A DNA stretch of 32,000 nt from Dehalococcoidia bacterium (GTDB lineage Bacteria > Chloroflexota > Dehalococcoidia > Lucifugimonadales > JAGWBF01), in assembly GCA_021295955.1 (NCBI GenBank), contig JAGWBJ010000004.1, forward strand, positions 1 to 32,000, written 5' to 3'. Positions 6,782-13,950 of this stretch are shown one piece after another. The notes below the pieces were generated by a model, which worked only from the letters and a program-made list of their open reading frames with translations, ran no database searches and was not told the DNA's origin. The first letter of the stretch is position 1, and the number at the start of each line of letters is the position of its first letter. Made by a program: the position numbers and the translations under genes.

Positions 6782-6810
6782 TTGAACAGCCTGACGGCCA
6801 GCGTTATAAT
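6782..6810 (+). promoter_or_regulatory. Candidate promoter for lpdA
   Basis: TTGAAC (6782-6787), a 17-nt spacer, and a perfect TATAAT (6805-6810). Predicts a 5' leader of about 115 nt. Confidence 0.5.
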
Positions 6811-6923: not shown

Positions 6924-6930
6924 GGTGGGG

Positions 6931-8316
6931 ATGGCCGAAGAGTATGACGTAGCCGTCATAGGGGCGGGGCCGGGCGGCTACGTTGCGGCCATCAGGGCGG
7001 CCCAGTTGGGGTTGCGCACCGCCGTCGTCGAGCGGGAGGAGTTGGGCGGCGTCTGCCTGAACTGGGGATGCATCCCCAGCAAAGCCCTCCTCAGGAACGC
7101 CGAGGTCCTCTCCATCATCCACCGGGCCGGCGAGTTCGGCTTCGAGTTCGACAACCTGCGGGTGGACTACTCCAAAGCGGTGGACCGCAGCCGCTCGGTG
7201 GTGGACCGCAACACCAAGGGGATCGCCTACCTGCTCCGCAAGAACAAGATCGACCATATCAGGGGCGAGGCATCCCTGAGAGATGGTCAAACCTTGGAGG
7301 TCTCCCCTGACGGCAGGGTCCTCAAGGCGAAGAACGTTGTCCTCGCCACCGGGGCCCGGCCCCGCAGCATCCCATCCCTTCCCATCGATGGCGAGGTGGT
7401 GATGACCAGCCGCCACGCCCTGGCCCTGCGGCATCTCCCGGAATCGGTGGTGATTGTCGGCGCGGGGGCCACGGGGATGGAGTTCGCGTACCTGTACAAC
7501 GCCTATGGCGTGAAGGTCACCGTGGTGGAGGTGCTGCCTCGAACCGTTCCCAACGAGGACGAGGAGATCAGCAGGGCCCTGGAGCGGGCCCTGTCGCGAG
7601 AGGGAGTCACCTTCAACACTGGGTCCAGGGTCACCCAGCTCACCCACGCCAACGGGGGCGTCCGTCTTTCCGTGGAGTCCGATGGCAGGGCCGCAGAGTT
7701 AGACTGCGACAAGGTGCTGGTGGCCATCGGCGTCCAGCCCAACGTGGAGGACATGGGCCTGGAGCGGTTGGGTGTAGCCATGGACCGGGGCATGGTGCAG
7801 GTCGACGACGGAATGGCCACGAACGTACCGGGTATCTACGCCATAGGGGACGTCACCGGCAAGCTGCCGCTGGCCCACGTCGCCTCCGCCCAGGGGGTCG
7901 CCGCCGTGGAGACCATCGCCGGGGTCGAGACCCAACCACTGGACTACGTGAACATGCCCCGGGCCACCTACTGTGTTCCCCAGGTGGCCAGCTTCGGGCT
8001 CACCGAGCGGCAGGCCCGGGACCAGGGCTACGACGTGAAGGTGGGCAAGTTCCATTTCCAGGCCAGCGGAAAGGCCGCCGCCATCGGGGAGACCGCCGGG
8101 CTGGTCAAGCTGGTGGTAGAGGAGAAGTACGGCGAGGTTCTTGGGGCGCACATGGTCGGGCCCGAGGTGACCGAGATGCTGGCCGGGCTCTCCATCGCCC
8201 GCCTTCTCGAGGGGACCACCCTCGAGCTGGGATGGATGGTCTACTCCCATCCCAGCCTCTCCGAAGCGATCAAGGAGGCGGCGCTGGCCGCCGAGGGAAG
8301 GGCGGTACACAGCTGA
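6931..8316 (+). CDS. lpdA: Dihydrolipoyl dehydrogenase (E3)
   Basis: FAD motif VIGAGPGGY, redox-active disulfide GGVCLNWGCIPSK, NAD motif VVIVGAGATGMEFA, and C-terminal HPSLSE interface motif. ATG at 6931 is preferred over the GTG at 6925. Confidence 0.9.
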   Translation: MAEEYDVAVIGAGPGGYVAAIRAAQLGLRTAVVEREELGGVCLNWGCIPSKALLRNAEVLSIIHRAGEFGFEFDNLRVDYSKAVDRSRSVVDRNTKGIAYLLRKNKIDHIRGEASLRDGQTLEVSPDGRVLKAKNVVLATGARPRSIPSLPIDGEVVMTSRHALALRHLPESVVIVGAGATGMEFAYLYNAYGVKVTVVEVLPRTVPNEDEEISRALERALSREGVTFNTGSRVTQLTHANGGVRLSVESDGRAAELDCDKVLVAIGVQPNVEDMGLERLGVAMDRGMVQVDDGMATNVPGIYAIGDVTGKLPLAHVASAQGVAAVETIAGVETQPLDYVNMPRATYCVPQVASFGLTERQARDQGYDVKVGKFHFQASGKAAAIGETAGLVKLVVEEKYGEVLGAHMVGPEVTEMLAGLSIARLLEGTTLELGWMVYSHPSLSEAIKEAALAAEGRAVHS

Positions 8317-8427
8317 CGGGACGGGCCATCTGTAGTTTCTCGTCACTATCCTGTACAATAACGGGAGCCGACGGCCCCTGGGCCGAGGGCTTGCTGACCT
8401 GATCGACCTCTAAGGAGGGGTGGCCAC

Positions 8428-10206
8428 ATGGGCTCTAGAAACTACGACTTCGCGATGGGCATCGGCGGGGAGGCCGGACAGGGCATCGCCACTCCCGGCG
8501 ACATCCTGGCCCGGATATTCGTCCGCCGCGGCCTTCATCTCAATACCTACAACGCCTACCAGTCCATCATCCGAGGCGGGCACATCTTCCTAGTGGTGCG
8601 CGTCTCCGACGAGGAGCTGTACAGTCACGGGGACTCCATGGACCTGCTGCTGTGCCTGAACCAGGACACGATGGACCGCCACCTGGGCCTCATGGGCAGG
8701 GGAAGCCGTGTCGTGTACAACGGCGACAACATAAAGCCGGGAGACGCCCAGGAGGGCGCTCACCTGTGCCCGCTGCCCGTGGGAGAGCTTACCAACAGCC
8801 GCAACCGCCTGATGCAGAACACCGTGGCCGTGGGGTCCATCATATCCCTGATGGGGCTGGACTTCAGCATCCTGGAGGACAGCCTCAGGCTGCGGTTCGC
8901 GCGCCAGGGCGAGTCGGTGGTGGAGGAGAACGTCAGGGTGGCCCGGGCCGGGTACGACTACGCCGAGTCCAACTTTGAGCCCTTCCCCAAGGCCGCGCCC
9001 ATGGGCTCAACGCCCCAGGCGGTCTGGTCGGGCAACGAGGCCCTGGCCATGGGCGGGGCGGCGGCCGGGGTGAAGTTCTACGCGGCCTACCCGATGAGCC
9101 CCTCCACCGGAGTGCTCCACTGGATGGCCCAGAACGCCCGCAACCTGGGCATCATGGTACGGCAGGTGGAGGACGAGGTCGGCGTCGCCAACATGACCAT
9201 CGGCGCCGCCCACACGGGCGTCCGGGCCATGTGCGCCACCTCCGGAGGCGGGTTCGCCCTGATGACCGAGGCCGTGGGTAGCGCCGCTATGATGGAGATC
9301 CCGGTGGTGTTCATCGACGTCCAGCGGGCCGGCCCCTCCACCGGGGTGCCCACCAAGACGGAGCAGGGGGATCTGTGGCAGGTCCTGGGCGCCAGCCAGG
9401 GAGACTTCGAGCGGTTCATCGTTGCTCCTAAGGACGCCCTGGACGCCTTCAACACCGTCCCCGAGCTTTTCAACCTGGTGGACAAGGCCCAGTGCCCCGG
9501 GATAGTCATATCCGACCTGCTGATCTCCGAGGGCAGGTTCAGTTTTGACCCGGCGGACGTGGACATGCAGCCCCAGATCGACCGGGGAGACATTATCATG
9601 GAGCCCTCGGACACCGACGGCTACAAGCGCTACGCCGACACCGAGAACGGCATCTCCCCCCGGGCCTTGCCGGGGTTGGAGGGGTACGTCCACGTGGTCG
9701 CCACCGACGAGCACGACGAGGACTCGGTGCTCATCAGCGACGAGTTCACCAATCCCCACAAGCGCCGGAAGATGGTGGAGAAGAGGGCCCGCAAGTTCCA
9801 GGGGATTGTCAAGGCGGTCGCGCCGCCCGCCATCGAGGGCCCGGCGGACGCCGACGTGACCCTCATCGGCTGGGGCTCCTCCTACGGCGTGATCAAGGAG
9901 GCCATAGGCCAGCTGGCCGACAAGGGGGTTACAGCCAACCAGCTACCGATAAAGTGGATAGTCCCGTTCAACGGCGAGGCCGTCGTCGACATCGTGTCCA
10001 AGTGCAAACGGACCATCGTTGTGGAGAACAACTACTCCGGCCAGTTCTTCAGGTACATGCGCAGCGAGACCGGCCTGAACGTGGACGGACACATCCGAAA
10101 GTACGACGGCGAGCCCTTCATGCCCCACCACATCGTGGACGGGGTGCTGGAGCTGATGGCGGGCAAGACCACGTGCTACGTGCCCTATCAGGAAGTCATG
10201 GTATAA
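8428..10206 (+). CDS. korA: 2-oxoacid:ferredoxin (acceptor) oxidoreductase, fused gamma-alpha subunit
   Basis: N-terminal POR gamma-type domain (GGEAGQGI...), then the alpha domain (AAYPMSPSTG, EDEVGVANMTIGAAHTGVRAMCATSGGGFALM, QRAGPSTGVPTKTEQGDL). SD AAGGAGGGG upstream. Confidence 0.85.
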   Translation: MGSRNYDFAMGIGGEAGQGIATPGDILARIFVRRGLHLNTYNAYQSIIRGGHIFLVVRVSDEELYSHGDSMDLLLCLNQDTMDRHLGLMGRGSRVVYNGDNIKPGDAQEGAHLCPLPVGELTNSRNRLMQNTVAVGSIISLMGLDFSILEDSLRLRFARQGESVVEENVRVARAGYDYAESNFEPFPKAAPMGSTPQAVWSGNEALAMGGAAAGVKFYAAYPMSPSTGVLHWMAQNARNLGIMVRQVEDEVGVANMTIGAAHTGVRAMCATSGGGFALMTEAVGSAAMMEIPVVFIDVQRAGPSTGVPTKTEQGDLWQVLGASQGDFERFIVAPKDALDAFNTVPELFNLVDKAQCPGIVISDLLISEGRFSFDPADVDMQPQIDRGDIIMEPSDTDGYKRYADTENGISPRALPGLEGYVHVVATDEHDEDSVLISDEFTNPHKRRKMVEKRARKFQGIVKAVAPPAIEGPADADVTLIGWGSSYGVIKEAIGQLADKGVTANQLPIKWIVPFNGEAVVDIVSKCKRTIVVENNYSGQFFRYMRSETGLNVDGHIRKYDGEPFMPHHIVDGVLELMAGKTTCYVPYQEVMV

Positions 10207-10219
10207 GAGAGGTGACAGG

Positions 10220-11125
10220 ATGGCAGCTACCGTCGGCGTGGCCGAAGGCGAACCCGTTGTACAGCTAACCGCCAAGGACTTCAAGGGACCGGTCGATCCC
10301 GACTGGTGCCCCGGGTGCGGAGACTTTGGGGTCCTGAACAGCCTGCAAAGGGCGTGCGCCTCCCTGGGATTGAGGCCCCATGAGATACTCACCGTCAGTG
10401 GCATCGGATGTTCGTCCAACCTGCCTGGATACTTCAACGGCAACGGCATGCACACCCTCCACGGCCGCGCCCTGGCCGTGGCCACCGGCGCCAAGATGGC
10501 CAACCACGAGCTGACGGTCATCGCCACCGGCGGCGACGGGGACGGCTACGGCATCGGCGGCAACCACTTCGTGCACACCGCCCGCCGCAACGTGGACCTG
10601 ACGTACGTCGTCATGAACAACCAGATTTACGGGCTGACCACCGGCCAGCTCTCCCCTACCAGCAGCATAGGCATGCGCACCAAGAGCTCCCCCTTCGGCA
10701 GTGTGGAGATGCCGGTGAACCCCATCACCTCCGCCATAATGAACGGCGCAACCTACGTTGCCAGGGGGTACTCCGGAGACATCCGGCATCTGACCCAGCT
10801 CATCATCGACGGCATACAGCACGAGGGGTTCGCCCTGGTCGACGTGTTCAGTCCCTGCGTCACTTTCAACCTCGACAACGGACACAGCTTCTTCAAGGAG
10901 CGGGTTGTCAAGCTGGAGGACGAGGAGCATGATCCCACCGACTGGAAGCTGGCCTGCGAAAGGGCCATGGCCTGGGGAGACAAGATCTACACAGGCCTGT
11001 TCTTCAAGGAGGAGATCCCTACCCTGGGCAAGAGGGAGCCGGTGCTGGAGGAGGGCCCACTGGCGTTCAAGTCCCTTGGCCTGACCAAAGAGCAGGGGGA
11101 GAAGATCATCCAGCGGATGCTCTAG
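10220..11125 (+). CDS. korB: 2-oxoacid:ferredoxin oxidoreductase beta subunit (TPP-binding)
   Basis: WCPGCGDFGVL motif, TPP-binding GGDGDGYGIGGNH...MNNQIYGLTTGQ, and DVFSPCVTFN. It starts 13 nt after korA. Confidence 0.85.
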   Translation: MAATVGVAEGEPVVQLTAKDFKGPVDPDWCPGCGDFGVLNSLQRACASLGLRPHEILTVSGIGCSSNLPGYFNGNGMHTLHGRALAVATGAKMANHELTVIATGGDGDGYGIGGNHFVHTARRNVDLTYVVMNNQIYGLTTGQLSPTSSIGMRTKSSPFGSVEMPVNPITSAIMNGATYVARGYSGDIRHLTQLIIDGIQHEGFALVDVFSPCVTFNLDNGHSFFKERVVKLEDEEHDPTDWKLACERAMAWGDKIYTGLFFKEEIPTLGKREPVLEEGPLAFKSLGLTKEQGEKIIQRML

Positions 11126-11160
11126 CATCCCTCTTGGACTCCGCAAGACCCGGACTGCCC

Positions 11161-11188
11161 GAGCCGCCGGCAATACGCCCGGCGGCTC
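11161..11188 (+). terminator. Perfect 10-bp GC-rich stem-loop between korB and the E2 gene (terminator/attenuator-like, no U tract)
   Basis: GAGCCGCCGG (11161-11170), an 8-nt loop, then CCGGCGGCTC (11179-11188). A second 6-bp hairpin, CGCCCG-tgaca-CGGGCG, follows. Confidence 0.3.
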
Positions 11189-11260
11189 CGCCCTTGGTGT
11201 AGAATCGCCCGTGACACGGGCGGCCCGCCGTCCACCCCATGCCGGAGTCAGGAGGCAACC

Positions 11261-12475
11261 TTGGCGACCCAGATCGTGATGCCGCGGATGAACTACGACA
11301 TGCGGGAAGGCACCGTCGTCCGTTGGCACAAGGCCGAGGGGGACGTGGTGTCCCGCGGCGACGTCATCGCCGAGATCGAGACCGACAAGGCCACCGTGGA
11401 GATGGAGTCCTTCTGGGACGGCATCCTGGGGAGGATAGTCGTCGAGGAGGGGCGCGCCGTCCCCGTGGGAGAGGTGCTCGCGGTGATAACCGAGCCCGGA
11501 GAGGCCGCCCCGCCGGTGGAGTCGTTGCGGTTCCCACAGCCTTCTCCCTCTTCCCAGGGGAGCGAAGAGTCCACCGGCGCCGCTGGGCTAGGCCCGGGAC
11601 CGGAGTCCGCTGCCGATCCTCCCGCTCCACCTTCGGGTGTCAGGGCCAGCCCCATAGCCCGCCGCCTGGCCCGAGAGAGGGGGATCGACCTGGCGGCGGT
11701 CACGGGCACCGGGCCCGGGGGACGGGTGACCGAGACAGACGTGCTGGCCCACCAAGAAGGCCAGCTGGCCCCCGAGGCCGCCTCGGCGGGAGGCAGAATC
11801 GACCTGTCGCGGATGCGCCAGGCCATCGCCGGAGTCACCTCCCGGAGCAAGCGGGAGGTGCCCCATTTCTACGTCACCTCCGAGATAGACATGGACAGGG
11901 CTGTGGACCTGCGGGCTCAGCTCAACGATGCCGTTGGGGACGGACACGGGTCCCGGGTAAGCGTCAATGACCTGATCGTCAAGGCCGCGGCCAGGAGTCT
12001 GGAGAGGTTCCCCAAGTTCAACGCGTCATTCGAGGGCGACCACCTGGAGCTCCATGGGGACGTCAACATCGCCATAGCCGTCGCCCTGGAGGAGGGCCTG
12101 ATCCTTCCGGCCATCGCCGGGTGTCAGAAGAAGTCGCTGCGGGAGATCGCGGCGGCCAGTACCGACCTGGTCCAGCGCGCCCACGGCGGCACGCTGCGGG
12201 CGGAGGAGTACGCAGGTGGCACTTTCGCCGTCAGCAACCTGGGGATGTTCGACGTGGACAGCTTCGCCGCCATCATCTATCCCCCCAACGCCGCCGTCCT
12301 GGCCGTCGGCAGGGTCGCGGAGCAGCCCGTAGTGCGCAACGGCAGGGTGACCGTGGGGCACGTCATGAAGGCCACCCTCTCCGTGGACCACCGGGTAGCC
12401 GATGGCGCCGAGGGAGCGAGGTTCCTGAAGAACGTGAAGGGCCACCTGGAGAACCCGGTGAGCTTGCTGCTCTAG
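11261..12475 (+). CDS. Dihydrolipoamide acyltransferase (E2) with lipoyl, E1/E3-binding and catalytic domains
   Basis: Lipoyl-lysine motif EIETDKATVEMES, PSBD ASPIARRLARERGIDLAAVTGTGPGGRVTETDV, and catalytic DHRVADGAEGARFL. TTG start 5 nt after SD AGGAGG. Confidence 0.85.
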   Translation: MATQIVMPRMNYDMREGTVVRWHKAEGDVVSRGDVIAEIETDKATVEMESFWDGILGRIVVEEGRAVPVGEVLAVITEPGEAAPPVESLRFPQPSPSSQGSEESTGAAGLGPGPESAADPPAPPSGVRASPIARRLARERGIDLAAVTGTGPGGRVTETDVLAHQEGQLAPEAASAGGRIDLSRMRQAIAGVTSRSKREVPHFYVTSEIDMDRAVDLRAQLNDAVGDGHGSRVSVNDLIVKAAARSLERFPKFNASFEGDHLELHGDVNIAIAVALEEGLILPAIAGCQKKSLREIAAASTDLVQRAHGGTLRAEEYAGGTFAVSNLGMFDVDSFAAIIYPPNAAVLAVGRVAEQPVVRNGRVTVGHVMKATLSVDHRVADGAEGARFLKNVKGHLENPVSLLL

Positions 12476-12501
12476 GCATCTGGAGGTCATCCGCACAGAC
12501 C

Positions 12502-13950
12502 GTGTCCACAGGCGACAAGACAGCCCACCCCCGCCGCGTATACCCCCTTAGCACCAAGGACCTGACCGAGGAGCAGATCGCCGTGGTGTTCGCGATGACC
12601 TCCCGGCGGCCAGAGCCCTTCGATGAGATAGCCGAACAGGTGAGCCGGGAGACGGCGGCCAGCTTCCACGAGCGGTGGGTGCTGGGATATGGCCACGCGT
12701 CGGTCGCCGAGCACGCCGTCATACACATGGCCGTGGAGAACGTCTCCCGCCTGGCCTGCGACACCCTGGAGGACAACCGCCTGGGCTCCTACACGGAGAA
12801 GTCCTCCCGCTACCAGCTCCTGCCCTCGGGCTACTACCACGTCCCCGCCGAGCTGGACCCTCATCCGGAGGCTCGGACGCTTTACATAAACACCTGCGAC
12901 CATCTGTCGGGGGCCTACGCGCGGGCCGTGGAGGGCGCTACCTCCCACTTGAAAAGCCGGGTCCCCCAGCGCGATGGGGAGAGGGACTCGGCATACGCCC
13001 TGAGGATCAGGCGTCAGGTCATCGATAGCTGCCGTTTCCTCCTTCCGGCGTCCACGTTGACCAACGTGGGGGTCACCATGAACGCGCGGCTGATGGAGCA
13101 TGCCATCACCAAGCTGCTGTCGTCGGAGCTGGCGGAGGAGCGCAGCCTGGGCGACGACCTGAAGGACAAGGGGAGGGAGGTCACCCCGACCCTCATTAAG
13201 TACGCCGAGCCCAACCCGTACCTGGCGTCCTCCCGGGAGTGGCAGGTACGGTCGTCACCCGGGGGAGGGGAGACCGATGACTGTCATCCAGAGGCCGCGC
13301 TGGTGCGCTACGACGCCCAGGCCGAGCAGAAGGTGGCTTCGGCGTTCCTGTACAGGTCCGCCGGGCTGCCCTACGACCGGGTGTGGCGCATGGTCGAAGA
13401 CATGGACCGCCAGGACCGGGAGAGGGCCATAGACGGCTGCCTGGAGGGGTTGGGCGACCACGACGCGCCCCTCCGGGAGCTGGAGATGGTGGACTACACC
13501 TTCGAGTTCGTCATGGACTACGGCGCGTACAGGGAGTTCAAGCGTCACCGGATGCAGACCTACGTCCCCCAGCCACTGACCGTCGCCAACGGGTACCTGA
13601 CGCCCGACCTGGTGAGAGAAGCCGGTCTCGGGGACCTGTTCGACGAGGCGATGGGGAGCGTGGGTGAGGCTTTCCACAGGTTGTCTGAGGTCTCGGCCTC
13701 CTTGGCCCAGTACGTCGTCACCCACGCCCATCGACGGCGTTTCCTGGCGAGGATGAACCTGCGGGAGTGCTATCACATCTTCAAGCTGCGCACCCAGCCC
13801 CAGGCCCACTTCTCCATACGCGGGCCCGTGGAGGCCGCCATGCGCCAGGCGGTGGAAACCCACCCAGCCCTGTTCAAGCACCTCCGCCTGCGCAAGTTCC
13901 CCGATTGGTGGGGGGACCTGTACGGCGGCGATGCACGGGGAAGGGCATGA
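12502..13950 (+). CDS. ThyX-like (flavin-dependent thymidylate synthase fold) tandem-domain protein
   Basis: N-half GYGHASVAEHAVIHM...SRLACDTLEDNRLGSYTEKSSRYQ resembles the ThyX core and the S-x-R-Y part of the ThyX motif. The C-half carries YREFKRHRMQT plus a second ThyX-like C-terminus (ECYHIFKLRTQPQAH). The start (GTG 12502) is uncertain. The 12121-12475 part of the listed ORF is a shadow of the E2 gene. Confidence 0.55.
   Translation: MSTGDKTAHPRRVYPLSTKDLTEEQIAVVFAMTSRRPEPFDEIAEQVSRETAASFHERWVLGYGHASVAEHAVIHMAVENVSRLACDTLEDNRLGSYTEKSSRYQLLPSGYYHVPAELDPHPEARTLYINTCDHLSGAYARAVEGATSHLKSRVPQRDGERDSAYALRIRRQVIDSCRFLLPASTLTNVGVTMNARLMEHAITKLLSSELAEERSLGDDLKDKGREVTPTLIKYAEPNPYLASSREWQVRSSPGGGETDDCHPEAALVRYDAQAEQKVASAFLYRSAGLPYDRVWRMVEDMDRQDRERAIDGCLEGLGDHDAPLRELEMVDYTFEFVMDYGAYREFKRHRMQTYVPQPLTVANGYLTPDLVREAGLGDLFDEAMGSVGEAFHRLSEVSASLAQYVVTHAHRRRFLARMNLRECYHIFKLRTQPQAHFSIRGPVEAAMRQAVETHPALFKHLRLRKFPDWWGDLYGGDARGRA

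Follow-up and report, generated by a model that had tools for sequence, protein, structure and literature searches.

Here we report the analysis of a 32,000-nucleotide stretch of Dehalococcoidia DNA (positions 1 to 32,000 of contig JAGWBJ010000004.1 in assembly GCA_021295955.1, hereafter the window), in which korA and korB, the genes for the alpha and beta subunits of a 2-oxoacid:ferredoxin oxidoreductase (OFOR), lie between lpdA, the gene for dihydrolipoyl dehydrogenase (E3), and the gene for a lipoyl-bearing dihydrolipoyl acyltransferase (E2). Comparison of this locus with its counterparts in related genomes suggests that it is probably a remodelled pyruvate dehydrogenase (PDH) operon, in which an independent OFOR has displaced the E1 component of PDH and the remaining E2 and E3 now serve an orphan E1 encoded elsewhere in the genome. 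If so, the locus offers a clean, datable case in which an unrelated enzyme has displaced, in place, one member of a multi-enzyme complex, and for which an intermediate genome and several end states (E2 retained, E2 lost, or E2 without its docking domain) still exist. Full-text literature searches found no description of this arrangement; papers on SAR202 bacteria note only the co-existence of PDH and pyruvate:ferredoxin oxidoreductase (PMC5864207).

Gene order at the locus

Searches of the window with Pfam and NCBIfam profiles place the four genes on one strand in the order that the initial annotation had given:

6925-8316, + strand: lpdA, dihydrolipoyl dehydrogenase (E3); TIGR01350 at 563.7 bits, cut-off 408.8
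8428-10206, + strand: korA-like alpha subunit belonging to an OFOR of two-subunit (alpha-beta) type; TIGR03710 at 590.9 bits, cut-off 482.75 (subfamily level)
10220-11125, + strand: korB-like OFOR beta subunit, the thiamine pyrophosphate (TPP) and [4Fe-4S] subunit; TIGR02177 at 335.2 bits, cut-off 261.9
11261-12475, + strand: E2 dihydrolipoyl acyltransferase with lipoyl, peripheral-subunit-binding (PSBD) and catalytic domains; TTG start behind AGGAGG; best family TIGR01349

The spacers between these genes are 111, 13 and 135 nt long. LpdA carries the redox disulfide motif CLNWGC, found at residue 44 by a motif check. The E2 had been described as complete, with a lipoyl domain, a PSBD and a catalytic DHRxxDG motif, and each of these is present: the lipoyl domain matches PF00364 at 62.7 bits over residues 4-76, with ETDKA at residues 40-44; the PSBD matches PF02817 at 60.9 bits over residues 127-162 and occurs as one copy by a custom PSBD hidden Markov model; and the catalytic domain matches PF00198 at 260.2 bits and holds the motif DHRVADG. 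The best family of this E2 is the PDH-type TIGR01349, at 365.3 bits, under the equivalog cut-off of 445. The reported absence of E1 genes from the window also holds, in that none was matched there by tblastn with both E1-alpha/E1-beta (E1a/E1b) pairs and a whole-genome PF00676 search gave no match on the window's contig.

With E2, KorA, E3 and the orphan E1a as queries, we searched 40 relatives from the genus, family and order of the window, mapped their loci by tblastn and accepted KorA orthologues at ≥74% identity. A second sample, consisting of the best 80 KorA loci from 185,579 species genomes, was mapped likewise, and the two samples together yielded 57 distinct KorAB-bearing Dehalococcoidia genomes. 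Among the sampled relatives without a KorA orthologue, pdhA directly follows lpdA and is accompanied by pdhB and E2 in every case (27/27), with E2 lying ~2 kb beyond pdhA in 26 of the 27; the exception, G032, has a locus split over two contigs. In one relative, G010, the operon's pdhA encodes a bona fide PDH E1-alpha (TIGR03182 at 445.7 bits, cut-off 393.85) and its E2 is an orthologue of the window E2. In contrast, 56 of the 57 KorAB genomes have no pdhAB at the locus, and the distributions of KorAB and operon PdhAB are almost perfectly complementary (56/57 against 27/27). The following gene orders were found in the KorAB genomes:

lpdA-korA-korB-E2: 31/57
lpdA-E2 adjacent, korAB elsewhere: 21/57
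lpdA-korA-korB, E2 lost: 3/57 (G004, G015, G077)
lpdA-thyX, E2 also gone: 1/57 (G016)
lpdA-korA-korB-pdhA...pdhB-E2-thyX: 1/57 (G076)

The lpdA-korA-korB-E2 arrangement is not due to chance, because the same order recurs in those 31 Dehalococcoidia genomes; the concern that it might be unique to this genome can thus be set aside. G076 (loci L107 / L134 plus L133, on two short contigs) was alone among the genomes seen in having korAB as well as pdhAB at the locus, and since it holds both, the proposition that KorAB never co-occurs with PdhAB was rejected as an absolute.

Taken at face value, these gene orders indicate that the ancestral arrangement in this Dehalococcoidia order would have been lpdA (E3)-pdhA-pdhB (E1 alpha/beta)-pdhC (E2), and that, by comparison of loci, korAB is in the E1 slot of that ancestral PDH operon. 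The initial annotation had remarked that the OFOR genes take the position of E1, which is literally true in evolutionary terms, as relatives hold pdhA-pdhB in exactly that slot. With pdhAB apparently lost in most lineages that kept the OFOR, the presence of an OFOR in the E1 slot would represent a non-orthologous displacement in situ.

As a separate observation, the metagenome-assembled genome (MAG) G053 carries the lpdA-E2-thyX locus (L147, L148) and the korAB locus (L066, L072) each in two slightly differing copies on different contigs, which could reflect duplication or two strains binned together.

The orphan E1 and the fate of E2

The window corresponds to contig 21 in a MAG of 2.56 Mb (G000; 87.7% complete, 7% contamination) that contains two full E1a/E1b pairs and only two E2 genes. 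One pair belongs to a complete E1a-E1b-E2-LipB operon (C22:82.5-86.6 kb), which accounts for the only E2 besides that of the window. The other is an orphan E1a-E1b pair (C22:306.7-308.8 kb) with no E2 or E3 adjoining, flanked by genes for a SAM hydroxide adenosyltransferase and an FAD/BBE oxidase. Its E1a is PDH-like but diverged (TIGR03182 at 361.9 bits). The pair is unattached in every genome examined, where it has a conserved neighbourhood of its own, and its E1a is 97% identical among the window's congeners. Because the genome has only two E2 genes, the window E2 is the only free partner for this orphan E1. No E1o (sucA) was found in the window genome, the only TIGR00239 match (30 bits) being the orphan E1a itself. 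LpdA is the sole lipoamide dehydrogenase match above cut-off in the genome, and gcvH is also present. The more cautious option put forward in the initial annotation, an alternative enzyme co-located with E2 and E3 and an E1 encoded elsewhere, is therefore supported by the orphan pair.

From this gene content, and from the pattern of co-loss described below, we infer that the window E2 and LpdA form a PDH-like complex with the orphan, diverged PdhAB-like E1. As the sole E3 of the genome, LpdA would have been retained, presumably to serve the E1ab-E2-LipB complex and the glycine-cleavage H protein as well.

The fate of E2 was compared with that of the orphan E1 among the 56 KorAB genomes without pdhAB, scoring orphan E1a as present at ≥64% identity. 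Orphan E1a was present in 48 of the 56, and all 48 of these have a full-length E2; among the eight genomes that have no intact orphan E1, seven show loss or breakage of E2 or absence of its PSBD. The eight genomes are as follows:

G004, G016, G077: E2 absent
G015: E2 a 141-aa remnant, half a lipoyl domain fused to the last 100 residues (L023:10435-10740)
G054, G067: in-frame PSBD-less E2 of ~325 aa, with lipoyl and catalytic domains (L128:6111-7073, L129:6081-7052)
G072: E2 frameshifted; possibly a sequencing error, as thyX is also split
G049: E2 intact; a fragmented MAG with another unattached E1a type

The orphan E1a of G015 has an interruption of ~1.3 kb close to its 3' end, and the E1b contains a frameshift and an in-frame stop (L135:2178-5702). 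A gap between E1a and E1b was also considered as a sign of disruption in G032 and G047, and was rejected there because both genes are full length; it was retained only for G015. When the losses are placed on the E3 tree, three to four of four independent contrasts agree with co-loss of E2 and the orphan E1 and none runs in the opposite direction. These patterns support the view that the integrity of E2 follows the orphan E1 and not KorAB.

Several points weigh against the displacement reading. The window genome is an incomplete MAG with 7% contamination, and its orphan E1a falls under the PDH equivalog cut-off (361.9 against 393.85 bits). The contrasts for co-loss are too few for significance (p 0.125-0.25), and in G049 E2 is intact although no orphan E1 was detected, the other unattached E1a type being present there. 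Strict complementarity of KorAB and PdhAB would also be expected had KorAB taken over the role of E1 inside the complex. Finally, the PSBD-less E2 of G054 and G067 is under purifying selection without a free E1: the ratio of non-synonymous to synonymous substitution rates (dN/dS) is 0.22 over a dS of 0.71, the gene adjoins lpdA and keeps ETDKA and DHRVVDG, and the only E1ab in these genomes is that of the separate LipB operon. These two genomes suggest that E2 can have a use independent of E1 docking.

The last point bears on the best-placed alternative, that E2 and LpdA are kept for an E1-independent role, such as a lipoyl thiol relay, and that the korAB neighbourhood is mere history. A lipoyl-based peroxidase system of this general kind is known from Mycobacterium tuberculosis, where it consists of Lpd, DlaT, AhpD and AhpC. 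The conserved in-frame E2 of G054 and G067 beside lpdA fits such a role, as does the adjacency of lpdA and E2 in 21 genomes after the loss of pdhAB. It is harder to reconcile with the window's own genus, in which E2 has a normal PSBD and the orphan E1ab is conserved at 97% identity, or with the outright loss of E2 in at least three lineages that lack the orphan E1. We consider this explanation unlikely for the window.

Candidate transcription signals between korB and E2

Three candidate transcription signals were noted around the four genes:

6782-6810, + strand: sigma-70-like promoter candidate before lpdA, TTGAAC-17-TATAAT, 10/12 consensus matches
11161-11188, + strand: G+C-rich hairpin between korB and E2, perfect 10-bp stem
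11200-11205, + strand: -10-like TAGAAT upstream of E2, in CTTGGTGTAGAAT, which is invariant in four genomes

Promoter sites of the first kind number 4 in the region against 0.7 expected from shuffled sequence, by consensus match only. The hairpin pointed out in the initial annotation is real, with a perfect G+C stem; in the window genome it lacks a T-run, it was not called by a consensus terminator scan, and the folding z-score of the korB-E2 spacer is unremarkable (-1.59). It is kept in three congeners (L008, L009, L010), where it is trailed by GGTTTGTGT and by TTCAAC-17-TAGAAT. Relative to these, the window is without 49 nt of the korB-E2 spacer (junction at 11189), such that the T-rich tail and the -35-like TTCAAC are gone and TAGAAT is kept. 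The hairpin, for which conservation in congeners is the one line that favours a role, is possibly a terminator or an RNA-stability element, and the TAGAAT element is a possible promoter of E2 itself. Because both have been kept in the genus between korB and E2, they suggest that lpdA-korAB and E2 are separable transcription units; E2 would then probably have its own promoter behind the hairpin that ends the lpdA-korAB unit.

KorAB and its relation to E2 and LpdA

KorAB appears to be an ordinary 2-oxoacid oxidoreductase that is self-contained and depends on CoA and ferredoxin. KorB aligns over its full length with the beta subunits of the Magnetococcus 2-oxoglutarate:ferredoxin oxidoreductase (OGOR; 6N2N_B) and the Sulfolobus OFOR (5B48_B), and it retains the four [4Fe-4S] cysteines (in CPGCG, GIGCSS and SPC) as well as the TPP motif GGDGDG. 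Within the locus, purifying selection is strongest on KorA and KorB (dN/dS 0.05-0.06 for korA and 0.02-0.06 for the two together), as compared with 0.09-0.12 for lpdA among congeners. Moreover, KorAB persists in four lineages in which E2 is gone from the locus, and away from lpdA-E2 in 21 genomes. On these features KorAB looks self-sufficient, with nothing pointing to a need for lipoyl-E2.

The same features bear on the more adventurous proposal of the initial annotation, that the PSBD of E2 docks the OFOR or that E3 and the lipoyl domain act as its redox partner. In such a hybrid machine KorAB would replace E1 functionally and work with lipoyl-E2 and LpdA, either by docking on the PSBD and reductively acylating the lipoyl arm or by passing electrons to lipoyl and LpdA, and thereby to NAD+, in place of ferredoxin or in addition to it. 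If true, this would link a ferredoxin-type 2-oxoacid oxidoreductase to NAD+ through lipoamide. The placement of korAB exactly in the E1 slot and its near-perfect complementarity with PdhAB are what such a machine would predict, and E2 and E3 are retained beside korAB in 31 genomes under purifying selection. The adjacency of lpdA and korAB outlives the loss of E2 in G004, G015 and G077, the same KorAB clade lies repeatedly beside PDH E2 genes in other phyla, and the conserved E2 variants of G054 and G067 that lack a PSBD would fit too. The proposal is nevertheless not supported, as E2 is lost or crippled in lineages that keep KorAB, its integrity tracks the orphan E1, KorB retains all ligands of its own Fe-S exit route, and a conserved hairpin and promoter-like element separate korB from E2. 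In addition, G076 keeps both korAB and pdhAB, and full-text literature searches found no OFOR known to use lipoamide.

A further feature that could be taken to favour the hybrid is the presence of two tandem PSBDs in the E2 orthologues of a large KorAB clade, which spans the lpdA-korAB-E2 and the lpdA-E2 types, and likewise in G011 and G061 (examples are L056:8890-10269, L019:9988-11370, L144 and L149-L155). However, the duplication is weakened as a signature of KorAB, since it arose a few times and occurs in the PdhAB genome G014 as well; the window E2 has one PSBD. Taking these points together, we regard the hybrid as quite improbable. The locus provides a concrete and cheap test bed for the old question of whether an OFOR can talk to lipoyl proteins.

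We give very little credence to the remaining alternative, that E2 is a decaying, functionless relic and the arrangement neutral leftover synteny, because its dN/dS against three congeners is 0.16-0.21, and although E2 is the fastest-evolving of the four genes and has been lost or shortened in several related lineages, the window copy has an intact 404-aa frame with all three domains, the catalytic motifs and a strong AGGAGG ribosome-binding site, its orthologues align over residues 1-404, and 48 of 56 KorAB genomes have them at full length.

The substrate of KorAB

Four OFOR alpha genes are present in the window genome, the three besides korA lying at C22:168595, C29:154174 and C12:3410. The best solved relative of KorA is the Magnetococcus OGOR (6N2N), at 299.5 bits, and the equivalogs for 2-oxoglutarate oxidoreductases score far under their cut-offs (NF007206 at 160.6 against 579, NF007207 at 199.9 against 364). 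A second alpha-beta OFOR, found in 38 of the 41 sampled genomes, is nearer to the 2-oxoglutarate-specific Magnetococcus enzyme, at 371 bits. The same KorAB clade occurs directly downstream of aceE-aceF in an acidobacterial clade (L087:1754-8768, also L099 and L126; aceE at 1370.6 bits), and divergently beside pdhA-pdhB-E2-E3 in an alphaproteobacterial MAG (L103:265-8698). Two-subunit OFORs are commonly promiscuous for pyruvate and 2-oxoglutarate (PMC13768988), and the haloarchaeal PorAB is of this two-subunit type (PMC8305020).

The profile scores thus give no sign of strict 2-oxoglutarate specificity for the window KorAB. Based on the aceEF and pdh neighbourhoods, the second OFOR that is nearer to OGOR, the promiscuity of two-subunit enzymes and the complementarity to PdhAB, its substrate is likely to be pyruvate, or else 2-oxoacids of a broad range, and not strictly 2-oxoglutarate. 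The label "KorAB" in a widespread Dehalococcoidia/SAR202-like group may therefore hide a pyruvate or broad-range oxidoreductase, in which case reconstructions of the NADH/ferredoxin balance of these abundant uncultured bacteria would change.

Proposed order of events

Phylogenies of E3, KorA and the catalytic domain of E2 agree on their sub-clades, and this agreement implies that korAB is largely vertically inherited in this group; the resolution of roots and backbones is poor. All three trees place G076 at the base of one and the same clade of 15 genomes. Re-acquisition of its pdhAB by transfer is not supported, as the positions of its E3, KorA, E2 and PdhB are all those expected under vertical descent and its PdhB is ≤73% identical to that of any sampled lineage. 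On the simplest reading, korAB would first have joined the operon between lpdA and pdhA, after which lineages lost either korAB or pdhAB, and some later parted korAB from lpdA-E2. We also observed that non-Chloroflexota KorA sequences nest within the Dehalococcoidia KorA tree.

Comparison with known systems

The locus resembles PDH operons with a heterotetrameric E1 (pdhA-pdhB-pdhC-lpd, as in Bacillus subtilis pdhABCD and alphaproteobacteria; TIGR03182/TIGR01349/TIGR01350) in its E2, which has the lipoyl-PSBD-catalytic build and a PDH-type best family, and in its bona fide E3, and the complete lpdA-pdhA-pdhB-E2 set occurs at this locus in the window's relatives. It differs from them in that E3 comes first, the E1 genes are absent and an OFOR stands in their place, E2 is under the equivalog cut-off (365 against 445 bits), and the E1 presumed to be its partner is a diverged paralogue encoded ~300 kb into a different contig.

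Sharing of E2 between different E1 components is known from Corynebacterium glutamicum, in which AceE and OdhA share one E2, AceF. Similarly, the orphan E1ab of the window genome has no E2 of its own and would have to borrow one; unlike in C. glutamicum, one of the E1s that presumably shared the window-type E2 would have been replaced by an enzyme with no need of it. The case also conforms to the concept of non-orthologous gene displacement in situ developed by Koonin, Mushegian and Galperin, in that the same place in the operon is taken by an unrelated enzyme that catalyses the same type of reaction and has a complementary distribution among relatives. Here, however, only the E1 of a three-component complex would have been displaced, with the other two components staying and presumably being re-used.

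Among the OFORs, the closest comparison is with two-subunit enzymes such as the OGOR of Magnetococcus marinus (6N2N), the OFOR of Sulfolobus tokodaii (5B46/5B48), the KOR of Mycobacterium tuberculosis (PMC2773412) and haloarchaeal PorAB/KorAB (PMC8305020). As in these, the TPP-binding domains of the alpha subunit are preceded by an N-terminal gamma-type POR domain, the beta subunit combines the TPP motif with one [4Fe-4S] site, and the matches are full length. Unlike them, the window KorAB is embedded in a PDH operon, and its KorA is less similar to the Magnetococcus OGOR than is the other alpha-beta OFOR of the genome (299.5 against 371 bits).

The neighbouring thyX gene

Downstream, a long ThyX frame at 12121-13950 is read in a different frame from E2 and overlaps its 3' end by 354 nt. 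Because of this overlap, and because the homology to ThyX begins only near residue 130 of the frame, the true thyX start probably lies downstream of the E2 stop. In the mapped loci of the window's family, E2 is usually followed by thyX.

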